Assembly: GCA_051867395.1 (NCBI GenBank)
Contig: JBJDYN010000160.1
Span: 30,253-94,252 of the forward strand
From: Faecousia sp.
GTDB taxonomy: Bacteria > Bacillota > Clostridia > Oscillospirales > Oscillospiraceae
DNA length: 64,000 bases
Direction of reading: 5' to 3'
Positions 3,126 through 49,814 of the stretch are shown piece after piece. The notes below the pieces were generated by a model, which was not told where the DNA came from, made no database searches, and saw only the letters and a list, made by a program, of their open reading frames with translations. Positions within the stretch are counted from its first letter, which is position 1. The number at the start of each line of letters is the position of its first letter. The position numbers and the translations under genes are program-made.

Positions 3126-3371
3126 CACCTCGTGACGATACTCTATCACAAAAATCCGCCCCCGGCACATTCCGGGGACGAACCGTTCAAATCCGGGGAC
3201 GAACTGTAAATCAGTGTGGAGTGTAGAGAGTGGAGTGTGGAGTTATTCTCAGAAAAACCGGCTCCGTACCATCCAACGAAAAAGTGGAAAACGACCCCAT
3301 GGCGGGTGCTACAGGTTACATGGTACGAGGCAAGTTTCCTTTCACACCACTCTCCAAACTCCACTCTCATC

Positions 3372-4034
3372 TCAGCTTTGCGGTATTAGAATCTCTGTAG
3401 TAAAAGCTCCGTCTTCGCTGTTGCGGCTTAAGTAACCGTCCAAGCGCTCAATGATGTTGTCGATGCGCACCAGGCCGAAGCCGTGGCCCTCGCCTTTGGT
3501 GGTCCGGAACCGCTTGCCCACCTTGGGAAGCTTTTTGGCGGCGGTGAAGTTGGTAAAGGAGATGTACAGCTGGGAGCCTTTCATATCCATGTACACCCGG
3601 ATCAGGCGCTGGTCTTCGGGCAGGGCCAGGCTGGCATCGATGGCGTTGTCAAAGAGGTTGCCCAGAATGCAGCACAGGTCCAGCTCCGACATTTTAAGCC
3701 GTACCGGAATGTGGGCATCCACCTGGACGGGGATGCCCTTGGCCTTGGCCAGGGAGATTTTGCTGTTCAGGATCGCGTCCGCCATGGCGTTTCCGGTCTT
3801 CACCACAGTGTCCACGGTATTCAGGTCTGTATCCAGTTCATCCAGGTAGGCCTTGAGACCCTCCAGGTCCCCATTTGCCGCCAGCACCTTCATCATCTGG
3901 ATGTGGTTGCGGTAGTCATGCCGCCAGCCCCGGACCTGCCGGTACATATTTTCCACTTCCTGATAGTGGGTCGCAATCAGCTCCCGCTGGTAGGCGGCAA
4001 GGCGCTTGTCGATCTGTTTGGAAAGGAAGGACAT
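3372..4034 (-). CDS. Soluble GHKL-type sensor histidine kinase (LytTR-partner class), no transmembrane segment
   Basis: 220 aa. H-box WRHDYRNHIQ, N-box ILGNLFDNAIDA, G-box TTKGEGHGFGL. The protein begins directly in a coiled-coil DHp-like helix. AGGAGG lies 7 nt upstream. Confidence 0.8.
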   Translation of the reverse strand: MSFLSKQIDKRLAAYQRELIATHYQEVENMYRQVRGWRHDYRNHIQMMKVLAANGDLEGLKAYLDELDTDLNTVDTVVKTGNAMADAILNSKISLAKAKGIPVQVDAHIPVRLKMSELDLCCILGNLFDNAIDASLALPEDQRLIRVYMDMKGSQLYISFTNFTAAKKLPKVGKRFRTTKGEGHGFGLVRIDNIIERLDGYLSRNSEDGAFTTEILIPQS

Positions 4035-23932: not shown

Positions 23933-24015
23933 TTCGAGTCCCATTATCCACCCCATAAAAAATACCTGAGGCAAAGCCTCAGGTATTTTTTATGGGGTGG
24001 ATAATGGGACTCGAA
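23933..24015. repeat. 40-bp perfect inverted repeat (3-nt loop) covering the terminator and the last 23 nt of tRNA-His
   Basis: Base-by-base pairing of 23933-23972 with 24015-23976 shows no mismatch. The pairing breaks at 23932/24016. Confidence 0.9.
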
Positions 24016-24070
24016 CCCACGATCTTCAGAGCCACAATCTGACGCCTTAGCCAACTAGGCCATATCCACC
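23993..24070 (-). tRNA. tRNA-His (GTG), CCA encoded
   Basis: Cloverleaf read by hand. It has G-1, anticodon stem TCAGA/TCTGA, loop TTGTGGC, T-loop GGTTCGAGTCC and 3' end ACCCCA. Confidence 0.9.
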
Positions 24071-24093
24071 ATATATCTTCACTTGTAGCTGAA

Positions 24094-24170
24094 TGGCACG
24101 CCAGGAGGGACTCGAACCCCCGACCTACTGCTTAGAAGGCAGTTGCTCTATCCAGCTGAGCTACTGGCGC
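24094..24170 (-). tRNA. tRNA-Arg (TCT), CCA encoded
   Basis: GCGCCAGTAGCTCAGCTGGATAGAGC... Anticodon stem ACTGC/GCAGT with loop CTTCTAA. Confidence 0.9.
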
Positions 24171-24177
24171 ATTTCTA

Positions 24178-24251
24178 TGGAGCGGGTGACGGGAATCGGA
24201 CCCGCGTATCCAGCTTGGAAGGCTGGTGTTCTACCATTGAACTACACCCGC
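24178..24251 (-). tRNA. tRNA-Gly (TCC), CCA encoded
   Basis: GCGGGTGTAGTTCAATGGTAGAAC... Anticodon stem CCAGC/GCTGG with loop CTTCCAA. Confidence 0.9.
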
Positions 24252-25180: not shown

Positions 25181-25282
25181 AATGCTGAATGCAGAACGCA
25201 AAATGATGAATGAAGGTATCCCCCTTGGGGATGAATTAAAACAAATCCCGAAGGGATACCGTAATTCAGCATTTATCATTCG
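25181..25282. repeat. Heptamer-armed hairpin element E (dialect AATGCTG)
   Basis: Left array AATGCTG AATGCAG AACGCAA AATGATG AATGAAG. Right array ..AATTCAGCATTTATCATTCG. The core has ATCCCCCTTGGGGAT and ATCCCGAAGGGAT hairpins. The right arm overlaps the rluD stop. Confidence 0.7.
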
Positions 25283-26663: not shown

Positions 26664-26724
26664 AGGAACATCCTCCTGAAGACGTGCAACTCATTATACC
26701 ATGGCGCGGACGGAAAAGTCAATT

Positions 26725-26824
26725 GGGAGTGAGGAGTTAGGAGAGTGGAGTTAAGGAATCCCTTCGGGATAAATATTAAATAGGAAATGGAGCAATAAAA
26801 TGTCTGCTCTCCTCACTCCTAACT
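26725..26824. repeat. Heptamer-armed hairpin element D (dialect GAGTGAG/GAGTGGA)
   Basis: Left array GAGTGAG GAGTTAG GAGAGTG GAGTTAA. Right array CTCTCCTCACTCCTAACT. The core starts with the ATCCCTTCGGGAT hairpin. Confidence 0.7.
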
Positions 26825-26876
26825 GAATAAAAAACCCGCCCCGAGTATTCCCAGGACGGTGCTACTAGAGCCATAT

Positions 26877-27304: not shown

Positions 27305-28609
27305 ATGAAGATCGCATTTTATACCTTAGGCTGCAAGACAAATCAATATGAGACCCAGGCCATGGAGCGATTGCTGCTGGAACAGGGCCAGGAAATCGGG
27401 CATTTTGACGAGCCCTGCGACGGCTATGTGGTCAACACCTGCTCCGTCACTGCGGTGGCGGACAAGAAAAACCGGGCGGTCATCCGCCGGTGCCGCCGGG
27501 AGCACCCAGAGGCAGTAATTGCCGTCTGTGGATGCTACTCCCAGCATGAACCGGAGGTGATCCGGGAGCTGGGCATTGATGTCATCGGCGGCAGCGGCAG
27601 CCGGCAGGAATTTTTGGACATGCTTCTGTCCGCCCTGGAAAACAGGTCCCATCAAGAGAATCTGGATAATGCCCTTCGCCGCCGGGAATTTGAGGTTCTT
27701 CCTGCCGGAGGGTTGGAGGAGAGAACCCGGGCTATGCTGAAGGTCCAGGACGGCTGTGTGAATTTCTGCTCCTACTGCATCATCCCCTACACCCGGGGCC
27801 CCATCCGCTCCGCACCGCTGGAGGTGGCAGTGGCGCAGGCCAGGGAGCTGGCGGACCGGGGCTACCGGGAGATCGTGGTGACAGGCATTGAGATCGCCAG
27901 CTGGGGGGCAGACCTGCCCGGAAAGCCGGAGGTCACGCTGCTGATCGAGGCGATCTGCCGTGCGGTTCCGGAGCTGCGGATCCGGCTGGGCTCTCTGGAG
28001 CCGCGGATTGTCACGGAGGACTTCTGCAGCAGACTGACGAAGCTTCCGAACCTGTGCCCCCAGTTCCATCTGAGCATGCAGAGCGGCTGCGACACGGTGC
28101 TGCAGCGGATGAAGCGTAAGTACGATACTGCCCGTTATTATGAAAGTGTCTGCCTGCTGAAATCCTATTTCCCTGATTGTGCCGTTACTACGGACATGAT
28201 CGTGGCGTTCCCGGGGGAGTCGGAGGAGGAGTTTGCCGATAGCCTGGCCTTTATCCGTAAGTGCGGCTTTGCGGACATGCATATCTTCCCCTATTCCCGC
28301 CGTCCCGGCACAGTGGCGGACAAGATGCCGGGGCAGCACAACAATGCCACCAAGGAGCAGCGCAGCCGGGAGGCCATTGCTGTGGCGGAGGAAATGAGCT
28401 TGGACTACCGGGAAAGATTAGTGGGGTCTGTCCAGCGTGTTCTGTTTGAGGAAAAGGACGGGAGGTATTTTACCGGCCACGCTCCCAACTATGTGAAGAT
28501 TTACATGGAATGCGGAGAAGAGGAAGACCTGCATAACCAGCTCCGGGACGTCACTGTGACCGGAATCTACGCGGACGGAGTGCTTGGAAAAATGCAGAAT
28601 GTAAAATGA
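27305..28609 (+). CDS. mtaB: tRNA t6A37 methylthiotransferase MtaB-like radical SAM enzyme
   Basis: 434 aa. The N-terminal MTTase has Cys residues (CKTNQYE...). The radical-SAM motif is CVNFCSYC, followed by a TRAM-like C-terminus. Confidence 0.85.
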   Translation: MKIAFYTLGCKTNQYETQAMERLLLEQGQEIGHFDEPCDGYVVNTCSVTAVADKKNRAVIRRCRREHPEAVIAVCGCYSQHEPEVIRELGIDVIGGSGSRQEFLDMLLSALENRSHQENLDNALRRREFEVLPAGGLEERTRAMLKVQDGCVNFCSYCIIPYTRGPIRSAPLEVAVAQARELADRGYREIVVTGIEIASWGADLPGKPEVTLLIEAICRAVPELRIRLGSLEPRIVTEDFCSRLTKLPNLCPQFHLSMQSGCDTVLQRMKRKYDTARYYESVCLLKSYFPDCAVTTDMIVAFPGESEEEFADSLAFIRKCGFADMHIFPYSRRPGTVADKMPGQHNNATKEQRSREAIAVAEEMSLDYRERLVGSVQRVLFEEKDGRYFTGHAPNYVKIYMECGEEEDLHNQLRDVTVTGIYADGVLGKMQNVK

Positions 28610-28707
28610 AAGGGGGAAGTGATCGTTTCCTGTGCATAGGGGGCGGCATCTGCCTTTGATACCACTATCGTAAACGCTGTGATAAACGGTTATTTTCCGC
28701 CCATTCC

Positions 28708-30467: not shown

Positions 30468-30625
30468 GTGAAGAGTGGAGAGTTGAGAGTGGAGTTGGGC
30501 TGCGGACTTTCTGCACAGCAAAAAGTTCTGGTCGTTTCTATGGTAAGATGTGCACACAGATGGCCCAATGTTTTTCTTTCTGAAATCAACTCCACACTCC
30601 ACACTCCACCCTTCACACTCCACAC
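30468..30625. repeat. Heptamer-armed hairpin element B (dialect GTGGAGA/GTGGAGT)
   Basis: Left array GTGAAGA GTGGAGA GTTGAGA GTGGAGT T. Right array AACTCCA CACTCCA CACTCCA CCCTTCA CACTCCA CAC. The core is 91 nt. The inner 8 bp of the arms pair perfectly. Confidence 0.8.
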
Positions 30626-30640
30626 TGAAAAGAGGGTTTT

Positions 30641-31576
30641 ATGAAGCATCTGTTCATCATCAATCCCGCAGCGGGGAGTCGGAACCGAACGGCGGACTAT
30701 ACTGCCGCCATCCGGGAGACTTGCGGCAGCCGGGGGCTGGACTACCGGATCGAGGTGTCTCAGGCACCGGGGGAGTGCCGGCGGCTTGCCCGGGAAGCGG
30801 CCCAGGCCGGAGAAGATGTGCGTATCTATGCCTGCGGCGGCGACGGTACCCTGAACGAAGTGGCTTCAGGAGCGGCGGGGTTTGACAATGCGGCGGTGAC
30901 GGTGCTGTCCGGCGGCAGCGGCAATGATTTTGTCCGGATTTTCAGCGATCCCAAGGCTTTCTTTGATCTGGAGCGGCTGATGGATGCCGAGGAGATCACC
31001 CTGGATTTGATCCGCTGCAATGAGGACTTCGCCCTGAATATATGCTCTGTGGGACTGGACGCCCGGATCGGCACCGATGTGGCCCGGTATAAGCGGCTGC
31101 CGCTGCTGGACGGCTTCCGGGCCTATGCCGCGTCCACGGTGGTGAATGTGATCCGGGGTATTGGGGAGCACTACATAGTGGAAATCGACGGCCAACAGAT
31201 CGACGGGGAGCAAACCTTCGTCTGCGTCTGCAACGGGCGGTACTACGGCGGCGGCTTTAATCCCGTGCCGGAGGCGGATCCCACGGACGGTTCGCTGGAT
31301 GTGCTGCTGGTCAAGAAGGTTCGCCGGCTACAGGTTCCCGCTATCATCGGGAAATATAAGAACGGACGATACCGGGAATTGCCGGAGCTGATCCGCTATT
31401 TTAAGACGGACCGCCTGAAGATTACCTGTGACAGACCCAATGCCATCAACCTGGACGGGGAACTGCGGACGGCGCAGACCATGGACATTTTCGTCGCCAA
31501 AGAAAAGCTCCGCTTCTTCTACCCAAAGGGATTGACATGGAAGGCGAGAGTAGAAATGCAGAATGCTAAATGCTGA
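30641..31576 (+). CDS. YegS/DagK-family lipid kinase
   Basis: 311 aa with a GGDGT motif (ACGGDGTLNEV). The last 7 codons and the stop lie inside heptamer array F. Confidence 0.85.
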   Translation: MKHLFIINPAAGSRNRTADYTAAIRETCGSRGLDYRIEVSQAPGECRRLAREAAQAGEDVRIYACGGDGTLNEVASGAAGFDNAAVTVLSGGSGNDFVRIFSDPKAFFDLERLMDAEEITLDLIRCNEDFALNICSVGLDARIGTDVARYKRLPLLDGFRAYAASTVVNVIRGIGEHYIVEIDGQQIDGEQTFVCVCNGRYYGGGFNPVPEADPTDGSLDVLLVKKVRRLQVPAIIGKYKNGRYRELPELIRYFKTDRLKITCDRPNAINLDGELRTAQTMDIFVAKEKLRFFYPKGLTWKARVEMQNAKC

Positions 31577-31599
31577 ATGCAGAATGCAAGGGCTTTGCA
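31554..31599. repeat. Heptamer array F (dialect AATGCAG/AATGCTA), a solo arm with a small hairpin
   Basis: AAATGCA GAATGCT AAATGCT GAATGCA GAATGCA AGGGCTTTGCAT. Confidence 0.65.
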
Positions 31600-31607
31600 T
31601 GAAAAAT

Positions 31608-34600: not shown

Positions 34601-34775
34601 TAAGAAAAAGTACCGCATTGCAATCCGTCATGATGCAATGCGGTACGTTCCGTTTTCCTCATATCCGCATCTTTCCCTCCGACGGTATTAACCGTATCAG
34701 GTTCACGGGTCAGGACTACGGAGTCCAATCTCAGCCGGATGCGTCCGGCCCCCCGAAGATTGCTGTGCGATCTGA
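34601..34775 (-). promoter_or_regulatory. TPP (THI-box) riboswitch with terminator
   Basis: The reverse strand reads GGGGGGCCGGACGCATCCGGCTGAGA...ACCCGTGAACCTGATACGGTTAATACCGTCGGAGGGAAAG. The terminator follows: GTACCGCATTGCA...TGCAATGCGGTAC TTTTTCTT (34601-34646). Confidence 0.85.
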
Positions 34776-35652: not shown

Positions 35653-35742
35653 GTGGCTCTCCTAAGATATTTTTTATCATTGTAGCACAGGAAAATCTGC
35701 TTTGCAACGAAAAACTCCTTAATTTTTGGTTAAGGGAAAAAC

Positions 35743-36020
35743 AGAGTGGAGTGTGGAGCGTTGAGAGTGGCGTTACCGAAGCTTTTGCTGCAGCGCATTT
35801 TACCGCACATAGTCGGACGACGGAGGAAGTCGCCCTCTTTCGTCTGGCATTTTACATGGAAATGCATCGCAGCAAACATTTGGCGTAACTATTCAGTCAC
35901 GGCAAAATATGCGCGGTAAATGATCGTTTATATGAGAAACTTGGGGTACGACGGAATAGTTACCATTTGGCAACTTCACTCTCCACACTCCACACTTCAC
36001 TTCACTCCACTCCACTCTCC
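35743..36020. repeat. Heptamer-armed hairpin element C (dialect AGAGTGG/AGTGTGG), composite 197-nt core
   Basis: Left array AGAGTGG AGTGTGG AGCGTTG AGAGTGG CGTT. The right array has 7 units of CTCTCCA/CACTCCA type. The core contains TAAATGATCGTTTAT (35917-35931), which is also found at 44328-44342. Confidence 0.75.
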
Positions 36021-36183
36021 GCTCTGACGCGAACTCCCCACTTTTTTGAACGCGTCTTTAATTTTTCTTGAATTCTCCCGGAAGGGCTGGAAGTTTTCCG
36101 ATTGCTGTGCTATAATGTGCGCAAGTATAAAGTGCGATAGTATACCTAGGCGGCACAAGCCTGTTTGAAATGGAGAGAGAGCT

Positions 36184-38265
36184 ATGCTGGAACTGTTGGC
36201 GCCCGCGGGATCCATGGAGGCCCTGCGCGCGGCGGTGCAGAACGGAGCCAATGCGGTCTACCTGGGCTGCGGCAGCTTTAATGCCCGCCAGAGCGCGAAA
36301 AATTTTACCCCCCAGACTTTGGTGGATGCGGTGAAATACTGCCATATCCGGGGTGTCCAGGTCCATCTGACCTTGAATACCCTGGTTGCGGATCGGGAAA
36401 TGAAGGAGGCAGCGGAAATGATCCGCCATGCCGCCCAGAACAATGTGGACGCTTTCATCGTTCAGGATCTGGGCGTGGTGCAGATGTGCCGTCAGATCGC
36501 ACCCCATATCCCCATCCATGGCTCCACCCAGATGAGCGTCCATTCTCTGCCCGGTGTCCAGCTGTGCGCTGCCATGGGCATGAAGCGGGTGGTCCTGAGC
36601 CGAGAGCTGAGCCGGGAGGAGATTCGCTATATCTGTGCCAATTCTCCCATTGAGATCGAGGTTTTCGGCCATGGCGCGCTGTGCATGTGTTATTCCGGTC
36701 AATGCTATATGTCTGCGGTCATCGGCGGCCGTTCCGGCAACCGGGGGCGCTGCGCCCAGCCCTGCCGTCAGAGCTACGGCTATACCCATTGGGAAAACAA
36801 GTACCCCCTGAGCCTGAAGGACAACTGCCTGGTGGCTTACCTCCAGGAGCTGCAGGAGATGGGTGTGGTTTCCCTGAAGCTGGAGGGCCGTATGAAGCGG
36901 CCGGAATATGTGGCTACTGTCACTGCGGTCTACCGTAAGGCCCTGGACGAGGGGACAGTGACAAAGCCCATGGTGGAGGCGCTGTACACTGCCTTTAACC
37001 GCCAGGGCTTTACCGACGGCTACTACACCGGACGGGTAGACCGGAAGATGTTCGGCGTCCGCCAGGAGACCCAGGAGGATCCCCAGTGGCTCCAGTCCGC
37101 CCGGCAGTCCTATGAGGCCGGGGAAACCCAGTTGGTGGACCTGTCCTTCCGGGCGGTGGTGTCCGTGGACGGAAGTTCTCTGACGGCCACGGATCCGGAG
37201 GGACGAACCTGCCGGGTGGAGGGACCTATGCCGGAGCTGGCACGGAATGTGCCGCTGACTGGCGCGGCGCTGGCACAGCGGGTGGCTAAGACCGGCGGTA
37301 CGCCTTACCGCTGTGCCGAGGTGCGCACCCATGTGGATCCGGGTCTGACGATCTCCGCCGCAGCTGTCAATGCCATGCGCCGGGACGTGCTGAACCAACT
37401 CACCGCCCTGCGGGCAAGACGGGAGGAGCATCCCCTGCGTAAGCCCAAGGCCATCCCGGCGATCAAAGGCCCCAGCGGTTTGCCGGGGCTGACGGTGCAG
37501 GTTACCTCCCGGGAGCAGCTGACGCCGGGACTGCTGAATCTGGAGACGGCCATGCTGTATGTCCCCATGCACATCCTGCTGGCGGACAGTGCCATGACAG
37601 CGCGCCTTGTGCAGCGGGGCCGCCTGGCGGTGGTACTGCCCCGGATCGTTCACGACGGCGAGCTGCCCAAAATCAATGTGGGTCTTGCTACGCTGCGGGA
37701 ACTGGGCGTCAAGGATGCCCTGGTAGGCAATCTGGGCTTGCTGCTCCCGGTGCGGGAGGCGGGGATGCGTATTCACGGCGACTTCGGTCTGAACATTTTT
37801 AATTCCGGTTCCATGAACGTACTGCGGTCATTGGAACTGTCCTCGGCTACGGTGAGCTTTGAGATGACCTTGCCACAGATCCGGGATCTGAGCAAGGCGG
37901 TGAACGCTGAGCTCCTCGCCTATGGCCGCCTGCCCCTGATGCTCACGGAGCATTGCCTTATCCGGAACCGCACCGGCGAGTGCGACTGCCATCTGCGGAC
38001 CACCAAGCTCATGGACAAAACCGGAGCGGAGTTCCCCATCATCAAGGACGGAGACAGCTGCCGAAGCGTCCTGCTCAACGGCCGAAAGCTCAGCTGGCTG
38101 GACCGGCAGGACGATCTTGCCAAGCTTGGCCTATGGGCACTGCGTCTGTACTTCACTACGGAAAACGGAAAAGAAGTGGACAGAATTCTGGGCGAGTACC
38201 TGAACCCCGACGGATTTGATCCCGGAGCCTGCACACGGGGACTATACCTTCGGGGAGTCGAATAA
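36184..38265 (+). CDS. U32-family peptidase-like protein
   Basis: 693 aa. The N-terminus MLELLAPAGSMEALRAAVQNGANAVYLG is typical of U32. Confidence 0.85.
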   Translation: MLELLAPAGSMEALRAAVQNGANAVYLGCGSFNARQSAKNFTPQTLVDAVKYCHIRGVQVHLTLNTLVADREMKEAAEMIRHAAQNNVDAFIVQDLGVVQMCRQIAPHIPIHGSTQMSVHSLPGVQLCAAMGMKRVVLSRELSREEIRYICANSPIEIEVFGHGALCMCYSGQCYMSAVIGGRSGNRGRCAQPCRQSYGYTHWENKYPLSLKDNCLVAYLQELQEMGVVSLKLEGRMKRPEYVATVTAVYRKALDEGTVTKPMVEALYTAFNRQGFTDGYYTGRVDRKMFGVRQETQEDPQWLQSARQSYEAGETQLVDLSFRAVVSVDGSSLTATDPEGRTCRVEGPMPELARNVPLTGAALAQRVAKTGGTPYRCAEVRTHVDPGLTISAAAVNAMRRDVLNQLTALRARREEHPLRKPKAIPAIKGPSGLPGLTVQVTSREQLTPGLLNLETAMLYVPMHILLADSAMTARLVQRGRLAVVLPRIVHDGELPKINVGLATLRELGVKDALVGNLGLLLPVREAGMRIHGDFGLNIFNSGSMNVLRSLELSSATVSFEMTLPQIRDLSKAVNAELLAYGRLPLMLTEHCLIRNRTGECDCHLRTTKLMDKTGAEFPIIKDGDSCRSVLLNGRKLSWLDRQDDLAKLGLWALRLYFTTENGKEVDRILGEYLNPDGFDPGACTRGLYLRGVE

Positions 38266-38267
38266 AA

Positions 38268-38681
38268 AATGCTGAATGCTGAATGCTAAATGAGAGAGTT
38301 ATGGATGGAAATGCTGTTGTAGAAAAAAGCATCGAATTTGCGGTGCGAATTGTGAATTTGTATAAATATCTGACGAGAGAGCACAAAGAATATGTCCTTT
38401 CAAAGCAACTTTTAAGCAGCGGGACGAGTATTGGTGCAAACATTGCCGAAGCGCAACGAGGTCAAAGCAAAGCAGATTTCCTTGCGAAAATGAGCATTGC
38501 GCTCAAAGAAGCGAACGAAACGCATTATTGGCTGACACTGTTGTATAGAACAGACTATTTGCGAAAAGCGCAGTATGAAAGTCTGGATCAGGATGTTTCC
38601 GAACTGTTGAGCATCCTGACAGCCATATGTAAAACTGCAAAACCAGTATAATTCAGCATTTAGCATTTAGCATTCAGCATT
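38268..38681. repeat. Heptamer-armed element H carrying a four-helix-bundle gene (IVS-like cassette)
   Basis: Left array AATGCTG AATGCTG AATGCTA AATG (38268-38292). Right array AATT CAGCATT TAGCATT TAGCATT CAGCATT (38650-38681). The arms pair over ~25 bp with 1 mismatch. Confidence 0.85.
38301..38651 (+). CDS. Four-helix-bundle protein (23S rRNA intervening-sequence protein / Avd-like family)
   Basis: MDGNAVVEKSIEFAVRIVNLYKYL...SKQLLSSGTSIGANIAEAQRGQSKADFLAKMSIALKEANETHYWL. The track start at 38283 lies inside the repeat array. The stop codon lies in the right arm. Confidence 0.85.
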   Translation: MDGNAVVEKSIEFAVRIVNLYKYLTREHKEYVLSKQLLSSGTSIGANIAEAQRGQSKADFLAKMSIALKEANETHYWLTLLYRTDYLRKAQYESLDQDVSELLSILTAICKTAKPV

Positions 38682-38704
38682 ACGGAAAGGACGTTTACAA
38701 TACT

Positions 38705-39280
38705 ATGCAACTGATTCTAGCCTCCGGTTCCCCCCGGCGGAAAGAGCTTTTGGGTCTATTCGGTATTCCCTTTGCTGTTCGGGCGGCGGATATTGATGAG
38801 ACCATGGACCCGGAAAAAGCGCCCTTTGACGAGGTGGCCAGGGTCAGCCGGGCGAAGGCTATGACAGTTCCGCGGCAGCAGGAGGATGTTGTCATTGCCG
38901 CGGACACCATTGTGGTCTGCCAGGGAAAGGTCCTGGGGAAACCTGCGGACCCGGCGGAAGCGGTCAGAATGCTGACCCTGCTCTCCGGGCGGGATCATCA
39001 GGTAATGACCGGCTGCACCGTGCTCCGGGACGAAAAGTGTGAGACCTTTACGGAGGTCACCGACCTGCACTTCCGCTCGCTGAGCAAAAAGGAGATCGAA
39101 AAATATGTCGCCACCGGAGAGCCCATGGATAAGGCCGGGGCTTACGGCATCCAGGGCGGCGCGGCGCTGTTCTGCGAGAGAATGGTAGGCGATTATTATA
39201 ATGTAATGGGACTCCCTGTGTGCCGTCTGGGGCAGACGCTGCGGAACCTGGCACCGGAACTGATGGAGGATATTCTATGA
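38705..39280 (+). CDS. maf: Maf-like nucleoside triphosphate pyrophosphatase
   Basis: 191 aa. It starts MQLILASGSPRRKELL and contains GAYGIQG. Confidence 0.9.
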   Translation: MQLILASGSPRRKELLGLFGIPFAVRAADIDETMDPEKAPFDEVARVSRAKAMTVPRQQEDVVIAADTIVVCQGKVLGKPADPAEAVRMLTLLSGRDHQVMTGCTVLRDEKCETFTEVTDLHFRSLSKKEIEKYVATGEPMDKAGAYGIQGGAALFCERMVGDYYNVMGLPVCRLGQTLRNLAPELMEDIL

Positions 39281-48434: not shown

Positions 48435-48476
48435 CGTAAATACAAAAACAAATACGAATAAAGGAGAATGACTTCC

Positions 48477-49106
48477 ATGGCAACTGTACACGTAATCGAT
48501 CATCCCCTGATCCAGCACAAGCTGGCAATCCTGCGCAACAAGGAGACGCCTGTTAAGGAATTCCGGGAACTGGTGGGCGAGATCGCTGGCCTGATGTGTT
48601 ACGAGGCTACCCGGAACCTGCCCACAGAGGAAGTAACGGTGGAGACGCCTGTGGCCACTGCCCACTGCCGTATGCTCTCCGGCAAGAAACTGGCCATCGT
48701 TCCCATTCTTCGTGCGGGCCTGGGTATGGTGGACAGCATGGTGTCCCTGATCCCCTCTGCCAAGATCGGCCACATCGGCCTGTACCGGGATCCCGAGACC
48801 CACAAGCCTGTGGAGTATTACTGCAAACTGCCTGAGGACGTTGGCAACCGGGTGGTCTTTGTGGTAGATCCCATGCTGGCTACCGGCGGCAGCGCCATTG
48901 CGGCTATCGATTTCCTGAAGCAGCACGGCTGCCGGAACATCGTAATGATGAATATCATCGGCTGCCCCGAAGGTGTGAAGGCGGTCCAGGAGGCCCATCC
49001 CGATGTGGAAGTGTATCTGGCGGCTGTGGACGAGCACCTGAACGAGCATGCCTACATTGTCCCCGGCCTGGGAGACGCAGGCGACCGGATCTTCGGAACC
49101 AAATAA
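48477..49106 (+). CDS. upp: Uracil phosphoribosyltransferase
   Basis: The ORF is trimmed to [16 protein letters not shown]. The PRPP motif is [11 protein letters not shown], and [17 protein letters not shown] is at the C-terminus. Confidence 0.95.
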
Positions 49107-49122
49107 AAAGGAGAACGGAACG

Positions 49123-49533
49123 ATGCTGCGTGAAAAAAGCTGCGGTGCAATCATCTACACGGCCACAAACGGCGGGCCGCTGTTTTTGATCGAAAAGATG
49201 CAGAAGGGCCACTTCTCCCTCTGCAAGGGCCATGTGGAGGGCCGGGAGACCGAGCATGAGACAGCCCGGCGGGAGATCCGGGAGGAGACTGCCCTGAACG
49301 TAGCATTTGCGGACGGCTTTCGGAAGACCATCGAATACAGCCCCTACGAGGGCTGCCTGAAGGAGGTCGTTTTCTTCCTGGCCCAGGCCCTGTCCACCGA
49401 CACCGCCGCCCAGGAGAGCGAGGTGGCGGAGATCTTCTGGCTGCCCTTTGACCGGGCTGTCGAGACGCTGACCTTTGAATCGGACCGTCAGGTGCTCACC
49501 GCTGCCCGGGATTTTCTGGCCCGGAACAGTTGA
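49123..49533 (+). CDS. NUDIX hydrolase
   Basis: The ORF is trimmed to MLREKSCGAIIY. The Nudix box is GHVEGRETEHETARREIREETAL. Confidence 0.85.
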   Translation: MLREKSCGAIIYTATNGGPLFLIEKMQKGHFSLCKGHVEGRETEHETARREIREETALNVAFADGFRKTIEYSPYEGCLKEVVFFLAQALSTDTAAQESEVAEIFWLPFDRAVETLTFESDRQVLTAARDFLARNS

Positions 49534-49629
<96 letters not shown>

Positions 49630-49635
49630 AAATTT

Positions 49636-49664: not shown

Positions 49665-49814
49665 TTAGCAGCAGCCGCAGTTGTTGTTGTCGCAGCCGCA
49701 GCCGTTCCAGTTGTTGTTATTGTTGCAGCAGTTGCAGAACAGCAGGATCAGGATGATGATCCACCACCAGTTGTTGTTGCCGAAGCAGCCGCACAGACCG
49801 TTGTTGTTGCACAT
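49665..49814 (-). CDS. 49-aa Cys/Asn-rich single-TM mini-protein (not in the ORF track)
   Basis: Hand translation gives MCNNNGLCGCFGNNNWWWIIILILLFCNCCNNNNNWNGCGCDNNNCGCC*. GGAGG lies 8 nt upstream of the ATG and a terminator lies directly downstream. Confidence 0.6.
   Translation of the reverse strand: MCNNNGLCGCFGNNNWWWIIILILLFCNCCNNNNNWNGCGCDNNNCGCC

Follow-up and report, generated by a model that had tools for sequence, protein, structure and literature searches.

A four-helix-bundle gene enclosed by inverted heptad arrays between a U32 peptidase gene and maf in Faecousia, with the design of a 23S rRNA intervening sequence

The cassette between the U32 peptidase gene and maf

We analysed a 64,000-nt stretch of a Faecousia sp. 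genome (GenBank assembly GCA_051867395.1, contig JBJDYN010000160.1, positions 30,253 to 94,252; hereafter the window), in which a short gene of the four-helix-bundle (4HB) family, enclosed by inverted arrays of 7-nt repeats, lies between a U32 peptidase gene and maf (Table 1). A first-pass annotation, made from the letters alone, had assigned this open reading frame (ORF) to the protein family of 23S rRNA intervening sequences (IVSs), and profile searches agreed: the ORF matched PF05635 with 106.3 bits (1.2e-30; cut-off 33.8) and TIGR02436 with 114.1 bits (3.5e-33; cut-off 24), which makes it a clear sequence member of the family of PDB entries 2RLD and 2GSC. The closest solved structure was 2RLD (5.9e-42 over residues 2-114), whose entry holds five chains, and a solved relative from Xanthomonas has been described as a homopentamer. 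Homologues were mostly 116-118 aa long as called, with some up to 131 aa. A nearly identical protein (99%; P0002) was found on ENA metagenome contigs, from pig gut among others, and one homologue was named from an Oscillospiraceae metagenome-assembled genome. The window holds only this one 4HB gene. Profiles of anti-phage defence systems (PADLOC) and of phage proteins (PHROGs) gave no match, and its reading as a defence-system or phage protein was rejected.

We compared the gene with four orthologues (L009, L014, L016, L017) and found that non-synonymous divergence (pN 0.12-0.17) was far below synonymous divergence (pS 0.77-0.92, saturated), therefore the protein is constrained by purifying selection. 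The adjacent maf had a pN of 0.13-0.16 and a pS of 0.48-0.63; the 4HB gene thus equals its neighbour in non-synonymous differences and exceeds it in synonymous divergence. This excess could reflect another mutational regime in the AT-rich loop or replacement by paralogous cassettes.

The remainder of the first-pass description also held at the level of individual bases. It had placed the ORF outside any rRNA, in a loop closed by complementary heptamer arms of about 25 bp with one mismatch, with the stop codon in the right arm and an upstream ATG in the left. Reading on from the U32 stop codon (TAA, 38263-38265), we found AA-AATGCTG-AATGCTG-AATGCTA-AATGAGAGAG-TT-ATG, an arrangement in which the left array, (AATGCTR)n, begins 2 nt past the stop and its last unit merges into the ribosome-binding site (RBS) GAGAGAG (38288-38294). 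This site precedes the likely true 4HB start at 38301, and the alternative upstream ATG at 38283 falls within the left arm. At the far end the ORF closes with GTA-TAA-TT-CAGCATT-TAGCATT-TAGCATT-CAGCATT, followed by ACGGAAAGGACG...ATG of maf; the stop codon (TAA, 38649-38651) sits in the innermost, degenerate unit TATAATT, and the right array, (YAGCATT)n, which it overlaps, ends 23 nt upstream of the maf ATG, just before the maf RBS. The cassette spans the entire spacer, from the U32 stop codon to the maf RBS.

The paired segments (38268-38292 and 38657-38681) are 25 nt each and 96% complementary, with 364 nt between them and a G opposite T as the sole mismatch. Tandem Repeats Finder reported a period of 7 at 38268-38292 (3.6 copies) and 38651-38681 (4.4 copies), and the motif AATGCTRAATGCT with up to one mismatch occurred 10 times in the window (0.23 expected). 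In the predicted fold of a 441-nt segment the arms were paired (-135.3 kcal/mol; z = -5.8), and none of 100 shuffled sequences was as stable. GC content was 41-45% inside the cassette, 52-57% in the adjoining intervals and up to 64-68% farther into the flanking genes, showing that the cassette is compositionally foreign. No rRNA was found in the window, and the covariance models of Rfam 15 matched neither the arms nor any of the ORF-less elements described below, even at E <= 1. A consensus scan of 37900-38900 detected no promoter-like site, which is weak evidence.

Table 1. Cassette, neighbouring genes and other heptad elements of the window (coordinates in the window).
Feature	Position	Strand	Basis
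U32 peptidase gene, upstream neighbour	36184..38265	+	profile match 8.5e-86
Left arm, heptads AATGCTG AATGCTG AATGCTA AATGAGA	38268..38295	+	sequence, Tandem Repeats Finder
4HB gene, 116 aa, PF05635/TIGR02436	38301..38651	+	HMM (hidden Markov model), closest structure 2RLD
Right arm, heptads TATAATT CAGCATT TAGCATT TAGCATT CAGCATT	38647..38681	+	complement of left-arm units
maf, downstream neighbour, with mreC, an mreD-like and a PBP2 gene beyond it	38705..39280	+	profile match 1.1e-63
ORF-less armed element (AGTGTGG / CCACTCT), ~95 nt cargo	3213..3374		
ORF-less element, AATGCWR-type arms, 47-nt inner hairpin	25181..25280		
ORF-less armed element (GGAGTGA type), ~50 nt cargo	26721..26825		
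Three AATGNNN units overlapping a gene 3' end, lone array without partner	28591..28611	+	
ORF-less armed element (GTGGAGA / ACTCCAC), ~92 nt cargo	30468..30626		
Five AATGCWR units, single-unit right arm TTTGCAT, asymmetric or decayed	31555..31600	+	
ORF-less armed element, AGTG-type (AGAGTGG... / ...ACTCCAC), ~200 nt cargo, upstream of U32	35743..36025		
AATTGAA array, ~4.4-5 units, weak partial right arm	55677..55737		

Proteins of PF05635 are related to Avd of diversity-generating retroelements (DGRs), with which the window protein shares its fold superfamily, and a weak match to NF033474 would be in keeping with a remnant or accessory of such a retroelement. The match to this Avd equivalog model reached 25.1 bits, however, far below the cut-off of 80. 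No reverse transcriptase (RT) Pfam domain was present in the called genes within ~4 kb of the same-species locus L001 or of other syntenic loci, the rest of the window not being scanned, and no direct repeat resembling a template/variable repeat (TR/VR) pair was found in the window. On these three grounds we rejected the Avd reading at this locus and regard it as barely credible; the first-pass annotation had likewise noted no RT or TR/VR pair here.

Heptad arms around 4HB genes in other phyla

The 4HB family comprises 10,899 clusters at 50% identity (E <= 1e-3). Using an 11-sequence alignment as the query of a genome scan, we sampled 80 4HB loci from one-genome-per-species contigs of Clostridia, Bacteroidota, Cyanobacteria, Campylobacterota, Gammaproteobacteria, Spirochaetes, Acidobacteria, Planctomycetes and others. 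Strong period-7 runs lay within 90 nt of the gene on the left in 43 loci, on the right in 43 and on both sides in 35 (n = 80 loci), and periods 5, 6, 8 and 9 flanked the gene at 0-2 loci only. The best flanking inverted repeat had a median score of 18, compared with 7 for displaced pairs in the same loci, and 70 of 83 loci exceeded the 99th percentile of in-locus controls. Family arms were typically 26 nt long (interquartile range 24-32) and ~91% complementary, with the right arm starting a median of 9 nt past the 4HB stop codon. Homologues on viral contigs also had arms in ~10 of 19 cases.

Heptad-armed packaging is therefore the rule in this family, whatever the phylum, and is not peculiar to the window, where the first-pass annotation had treated it as a local oddity. 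Since the same packaging surrounds most relatives, the window cassette is one copy of a widespread cassette, and the single locus is ordinary for the 4HB family. The family-wide arm rule appears to be unreported: in the openly searchable literature, with subscription journals and database notes excluded, the only earlier description of heptamer arms around 4HB genes that we found concerns the Coxiella IVS heptamers, and the TIGR02436/PF05635 family is defined there by its protein only, its descriptions making no mention of arms.

The heptad units vary by locus (AATGCAA, AATTCGT, AATTGAC, AATGTTG, AGAGTGG and so on). A common core, A-R-T-K, plus three locus-specific bases was found in 72 of 76 loci, against 22 expected from shuffled units, and the AGTG-type units that form the second heptad class in the window conform to it. 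The two arms change together between loci, with AATGCTG/CAGCATT here and AATGCAA, AATGCAG / TTGCATT, CTGCATT in orthologues. Loci that share the variable part of the heptad encode more similar proteins (64% vs 54% identity; permutation p < 0.0005).

We also recorded the genomic context of the 80 relatives. ORFs of at least 90 aa flanked the gene on both sides at 62 loci, and the 18 loci without two-sided ORF neighbours gave no rRNA match, so that none of the 80 relatives appears to lie in rRNA. Where the neighbours were co-directional, the 4HB gene was co-oriented with them in a ratio of 48:2 (p = 2e-12), using rough gene calls (stop-to-stop ORFs of at least 90 aa). Some 4HB cassettes adjoin structured RNA genes on the same strand: one lies directly upstream of tmRNA (L087 1501-2234), one directly downstream of a T-box leader (L066 1136-1839) and others near tRNAs (L023, L093).

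Elements without the gene and the spacer in relatives

Heptamer-armed elements without an ORF recur elsewhere in the 64 kb, in line with the first-pass annotation. We counted 13 arrays of at least three A-R-T-K units in the window (0.67 expected) and nine period-7 arrays, compared with 0-2 at periods 5, 6, 8 and 9; the arrays outside the 4HB cassette make up eight further elements (Table 1). Among these, the GTGGAGA / ACTCCAC element fills the spacer between two plus-strand genes, running from the stop codon of one to the RBS of the other, and the AATTGAA array likewise fills the gap from a stop codon to the RBS of the next gene.

An autonomous-versus-miniature relationship between the 4HB copy and these elements had also been suggested, and this part was not supported, as we saw no sign that the 4HB copy mobilises them. 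Profile searches of the ORF-less loops in six frames with filters off returned no 4HB remnant, and we rejected the loops as decayed 4HB genes. Their cargos showed no similarity to one another or to other loci, which rules them out as one sequence family, and no convincing small ORF was found inside the loops. The cargo of the element upstream of U32 contains a 49-aa antisense ORF at 35730-35879 (-), with several Cys (MFAAMHFHVKCQTKEGDFLRRPTMCGKMRCSK...), that extends into the left arm; it is probably not a gene and has no obvious RBS.

We next consider the junction itself. Homologues ~80% identical occupy the same U32-4HB-maf-mreC context in other species, and one 77%-identical homologue sits at another site, likewise with arms. 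A metagenome scan with Maf yielded 67 U32-maf junctions with both gene ends visible. The spacer was shorter than 50 nt in 44 of these, empty spacers measuring 3-39 nt, and some of the short ones keep ...GCATT-like remnants. Arms together with a 4HB gene were present at L103, L143, L151 and L180, pure heptamer hairpins with loops of 4-14 nt at L134, L169 and L174, and a direct heptad array only at L117. In L103 and L105, which belong to one species, the flanking genes are 97% identical, the arms are identical and the cargo is different, being a 4HB gene in one and a 140-nt palindromic element in the other, with the break at the inner array ends. On the same-species contig L001, the right arm of the 4HB cassette has one extra CAGCATT unit relative to the window. 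A second swap site lies upstream of U32, where the window shares its AGTG-type arms, apart from unit number, with contigs L001-L004 of the same species, around unrelated cargo (104 nt in L001-L004).

The U32-maf spacer is thus polymorphic, being empty, occupied by arms only, by arms and a 4HB gene, or by the same arms with other cargo, and the comparison of relatives reveals insertion, loss and cargo replacement. From the variation in unit number and the differences in cargo it follows that the arms behave as simple-sequence repeats between which cargo comes, goes or is exchanged. Insertions have a hot spot at this junction. Other palindromic mini-elements also fill this spacer (L142, L145, L153, L176, L148, L118, L131, L146), with termini that include AAAGGCTTCCCCTGGGGGAAGC and GTAGGGCGGGG. 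The cargo between the L105 heptamer arms is a mini-element of the GTAGGGCGG type, which also occurs upstream of U32 in L009 (474-874).

One way to account for such a site is to take the heptamer hairpins as primary and host-side, akin to intercistronic repeats such as repetitive extragenic palindromes and bacterial interspersed mosaic elements (REP/BIME), with the 4HB gene as one of several passengers at the apex. The arms-only hairpins at this very site and the unrelated cargo within identical arms fit this idea, and heptameric repeats are over-represented in bacterial intergenic DNA (PMC4692102; PMC4679880). IVSs, moreover, take the place of tetraloops of 23S helices 25 and 45. However, 4HB genes of unrelated phyla and of viral contigs are surrounded by one and the same A-R-T-K core, and the heptamer type follows the protein, indicating that gene and arms travel together, and the RBS and stop codon are integrated into the innermost units. 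We consider host-side hairpins with passengers quite unlikely. Known intergenic heptameric repeats (cyanobacterial short tandemly repeated repetitive sequences (STRR), Xanthomonas GGGAATC, Beggiatoaceae TAACTGA) resemble the arms in having tandem 7-nt units, sometimes in inverted pairs, with strain-variable copy number, but they lack the A-R-T-K core, and the papers draw no link to 4HB genes.

Alternatively, the cassette could be a transposon-like element whose arrays serve as terminal inverted repeats for a recombinase supplied in trans, with the ORF-less copies as miniature derivatives. Terminal inverted arrays, presence/absence polymorphism, low GC content, numerous ORF-less copies and homologues on viral contigs would all be expected of such an element, and 4HB genes are among the strain-unique genes listed for Arthrospira. 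Yet no target-site duplication was found at 38268/38681, where the flanks ...TAAAA and ACGGAAAGG have no common direct repeat, and no transposase or recombinase was found in the neighbourhood of the locus. The ORF-less cargos are without common sequence, and the strong sense orientation bias is unusual for an insertion that is indifferent to orientation. The cassette at U32-maf is also syntenic across species whose Maf proteins are only 75-81% identical. Together, these observations make a transposon-like origin very unlikely. REP/BIME palindromes and MITEs (miniature inverted-repeat transposable elements) are, like the cassette, small palindromic elements in operon spacers; unlike them, the cassette has arms of tandem heptads in place of a unique palindrome, no REP-associated tyrosine transposase (RAYT) or other transposase and no target duplication.

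Proposed roles: a processed RNA stem or recognised heptads

The ORF-in-a-loop closed by a stem matches the design of the Coxiella burnetii IVS; likeness to 23S rRNA IVSs had been proposed for this locus. The Coxiella IVS is 444 nt long, with tandem heptamers ahead of a 4HB ORF and a GC content below that of its host; its 28-bp stem, which contains a mismatch and a bulge, is cleaved halfway along by RNase III (PMC4990558). With the 23S rRNA IVSs of Coxiella and Leptospira the cassette shares a length of ~410-440 nt, a terminal stem of 25-28 bp with one mismatch, a PF05635 ORF in the loop, heptamers just before the ORF, low GC content and sporadic distribution (PMC4990558). It differs in location and in its units: IVSs lie in a 23S helix (25, 45 or 9), whereas the window cassette is not in rRNA and sits between protein genes of an operon, and the heptamer of Coxiella, GACAGAT, departs from the A-R-T-K core. 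The window element is IVS-like in design but lies outside rRNA, the location that defines an IVS.

Judging from these data, we lean slightly towards a family module that consists of a promoter-less TIGR02436/PF05635 gene inside two inverted arrays of 3-5 heptads. With the same slender preference, we interpret the window cassette as an ORF-bearing module of the 23S rRNA IVS type that is placed in an operon spacer, expressed by read-through and processed at its stem. The cassette would be transcribed by read-through from the U32 operon, and the arms would pair into a ~25-bp stem around the 364-nt loop, which RNase III may cut as it does in rRNA IVSs, with Coxiella as the precedent. Such a cut would set the 4HB mRNA free as a molecule of its own and part the U32 message from that of maf-mreCD. 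The arms would act as simple-sequence repeats, with unit number varying by strain, and probably also as portable homology for cargo swap or loss. We ranked this IVS-like reading first, with heptad recognition as its main rival, because of the 48:2 co-orientation, the lack of a promoter-like site, the filling of the spacer from stop codon to RBS and the RNase III precedent in Coxiella; RNase III excision has been shown for the IVSs of Coxiella, Leptospira and Salmonella only.

Several observations weigh against processing of an RNA stem. Among arm mismatches in the family loci, G-U-type (34) and A-C-type (34) were equally frequent, with no sense-strand G-U excess, and the wobble bias looked for as a mark of an RNA stem was thus absent. 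Nor did variant units follow a mirrored order in the two arms (z = -0.6). The commonest variation within arrays was a G/T transversion at unit position 4, which gives G:A and U:C oppositions and so disfavours a pure pairing constraint, and the four-base core, conserved from unit to unit, resembles a recognition site more than something a stem would need. With the G-U bias and mirrored-order tests neutral, the heptads may act at the DNA level or in protein binding. The Coxiella IVS ORF is described as decaying and reported as probably untranslated, in contrast to the purifying selection on the window ORF. In addition, the empty state of the U32-maf spacer could be ancestral or derived, given the remnants in short spacers, and the 67 spacers are not independent lineages, since 20 of them are one identical 28-nt spacer and may represent a single abundant species. 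Finally, the divergence of Maf among the species that share it shows that the cassette is old, and with no recombinase associated its current mobility is in doubt.

Heptad recognition would turn the arrays into protein-binding sites, in DNA or in single strands, whose A-R-T-K units are bound, possibly by a 4HB pentamer, to regulate or propagate the cassette, with the stem as a by-product. A precedent is the omega repressor encoded by inc18 plasmids, which forms polymers along series of 7-bp heptads, direct or inverted. Binding of this kind would be consistent with a conserved four-base core and a variable three-base tail, with a position-4 alternation that disrupts pairing, and with the lack of both G-U strand bias and mirrored unit order. 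Heptamer type also co-varies with protein similarity, single arrays without a partner exist (28591 and 31555 in the window; L117), and the entries of the closest solved relatives each contain five chains, the Xanthomonas one being described as a homopentamer. However, non-DGR 4HB proteins have no known DNA- or RNA-binding specificity, and the correlation between heptamer and protein is confounded by common ancestry. In the window, elements with arms only or with other cargo exceed the one 4HB gene by ~8:1, and the inverted orientation of the arms is highly consistent (70/83 loci), as is their complementarity (~91%). Binding sites for a protein are unlikely to be the primary role of the arrays. 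A stronger form, in which the A-R-T-K arrays form a cognate pair with the 4HB pentamer and the protein recognises its own heptads (in DNA or RNA) and drives the formation, maintenance or spread of cassettes, is somewhat less likely again.

The ORFs of 23S IVSs were described in the 1990s and have been without an assigned function since then, the domain still being termed uncharacterised in recent papers. Our results show that the IVS design, a gene in a heptamer-closed loop, is the normal packaging of a very large 4HB family outside rRNA, with a unit core conserved across phyla, a sense-biased orientation, and arms-only and cargo-swapped forms at one orthologous site. This family-wide rule makes the old question of the IVS ORF testable. 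Under the IVS-like reading, the mRNAs of operons may be remodelled by 4HB cassettes, as here ahead of maf-mreCD in Oscillospiraceae that abound in the gut. If the cognate pair were true, 23S IVSs, the 4HB genes that lie outside rRNA in their thousands and part of the intergenic heptamer excess would be one self-propagating system without a conventional recombinase.

Elsewhere in the window, the last 88 nt of upp (49022-49109) are repeated at 49545-49632 with 85% identity (window 48468-49632). The repeat comes just after a small NUDIX-like ORF (about 49048-49533), and the arrangement looks like an insertion that regenerated the upp 3' end. A 49-aa ORF at 49665-49814 (-) is very rich in Cys, Asn and Gly and has a hydrophobic core (MCNNNGLCGCFGNNNWWWIIILILLF...), and we take it to resemble the small YjcZ-type sporulation proteins. 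More ordinary features at 23996-24251 (-) and 34657-34765 (-) are three tRNA genes and a thiamine pyrophosphate (TPP) riboswitch upstream of a thiamine-transporter-like gene.
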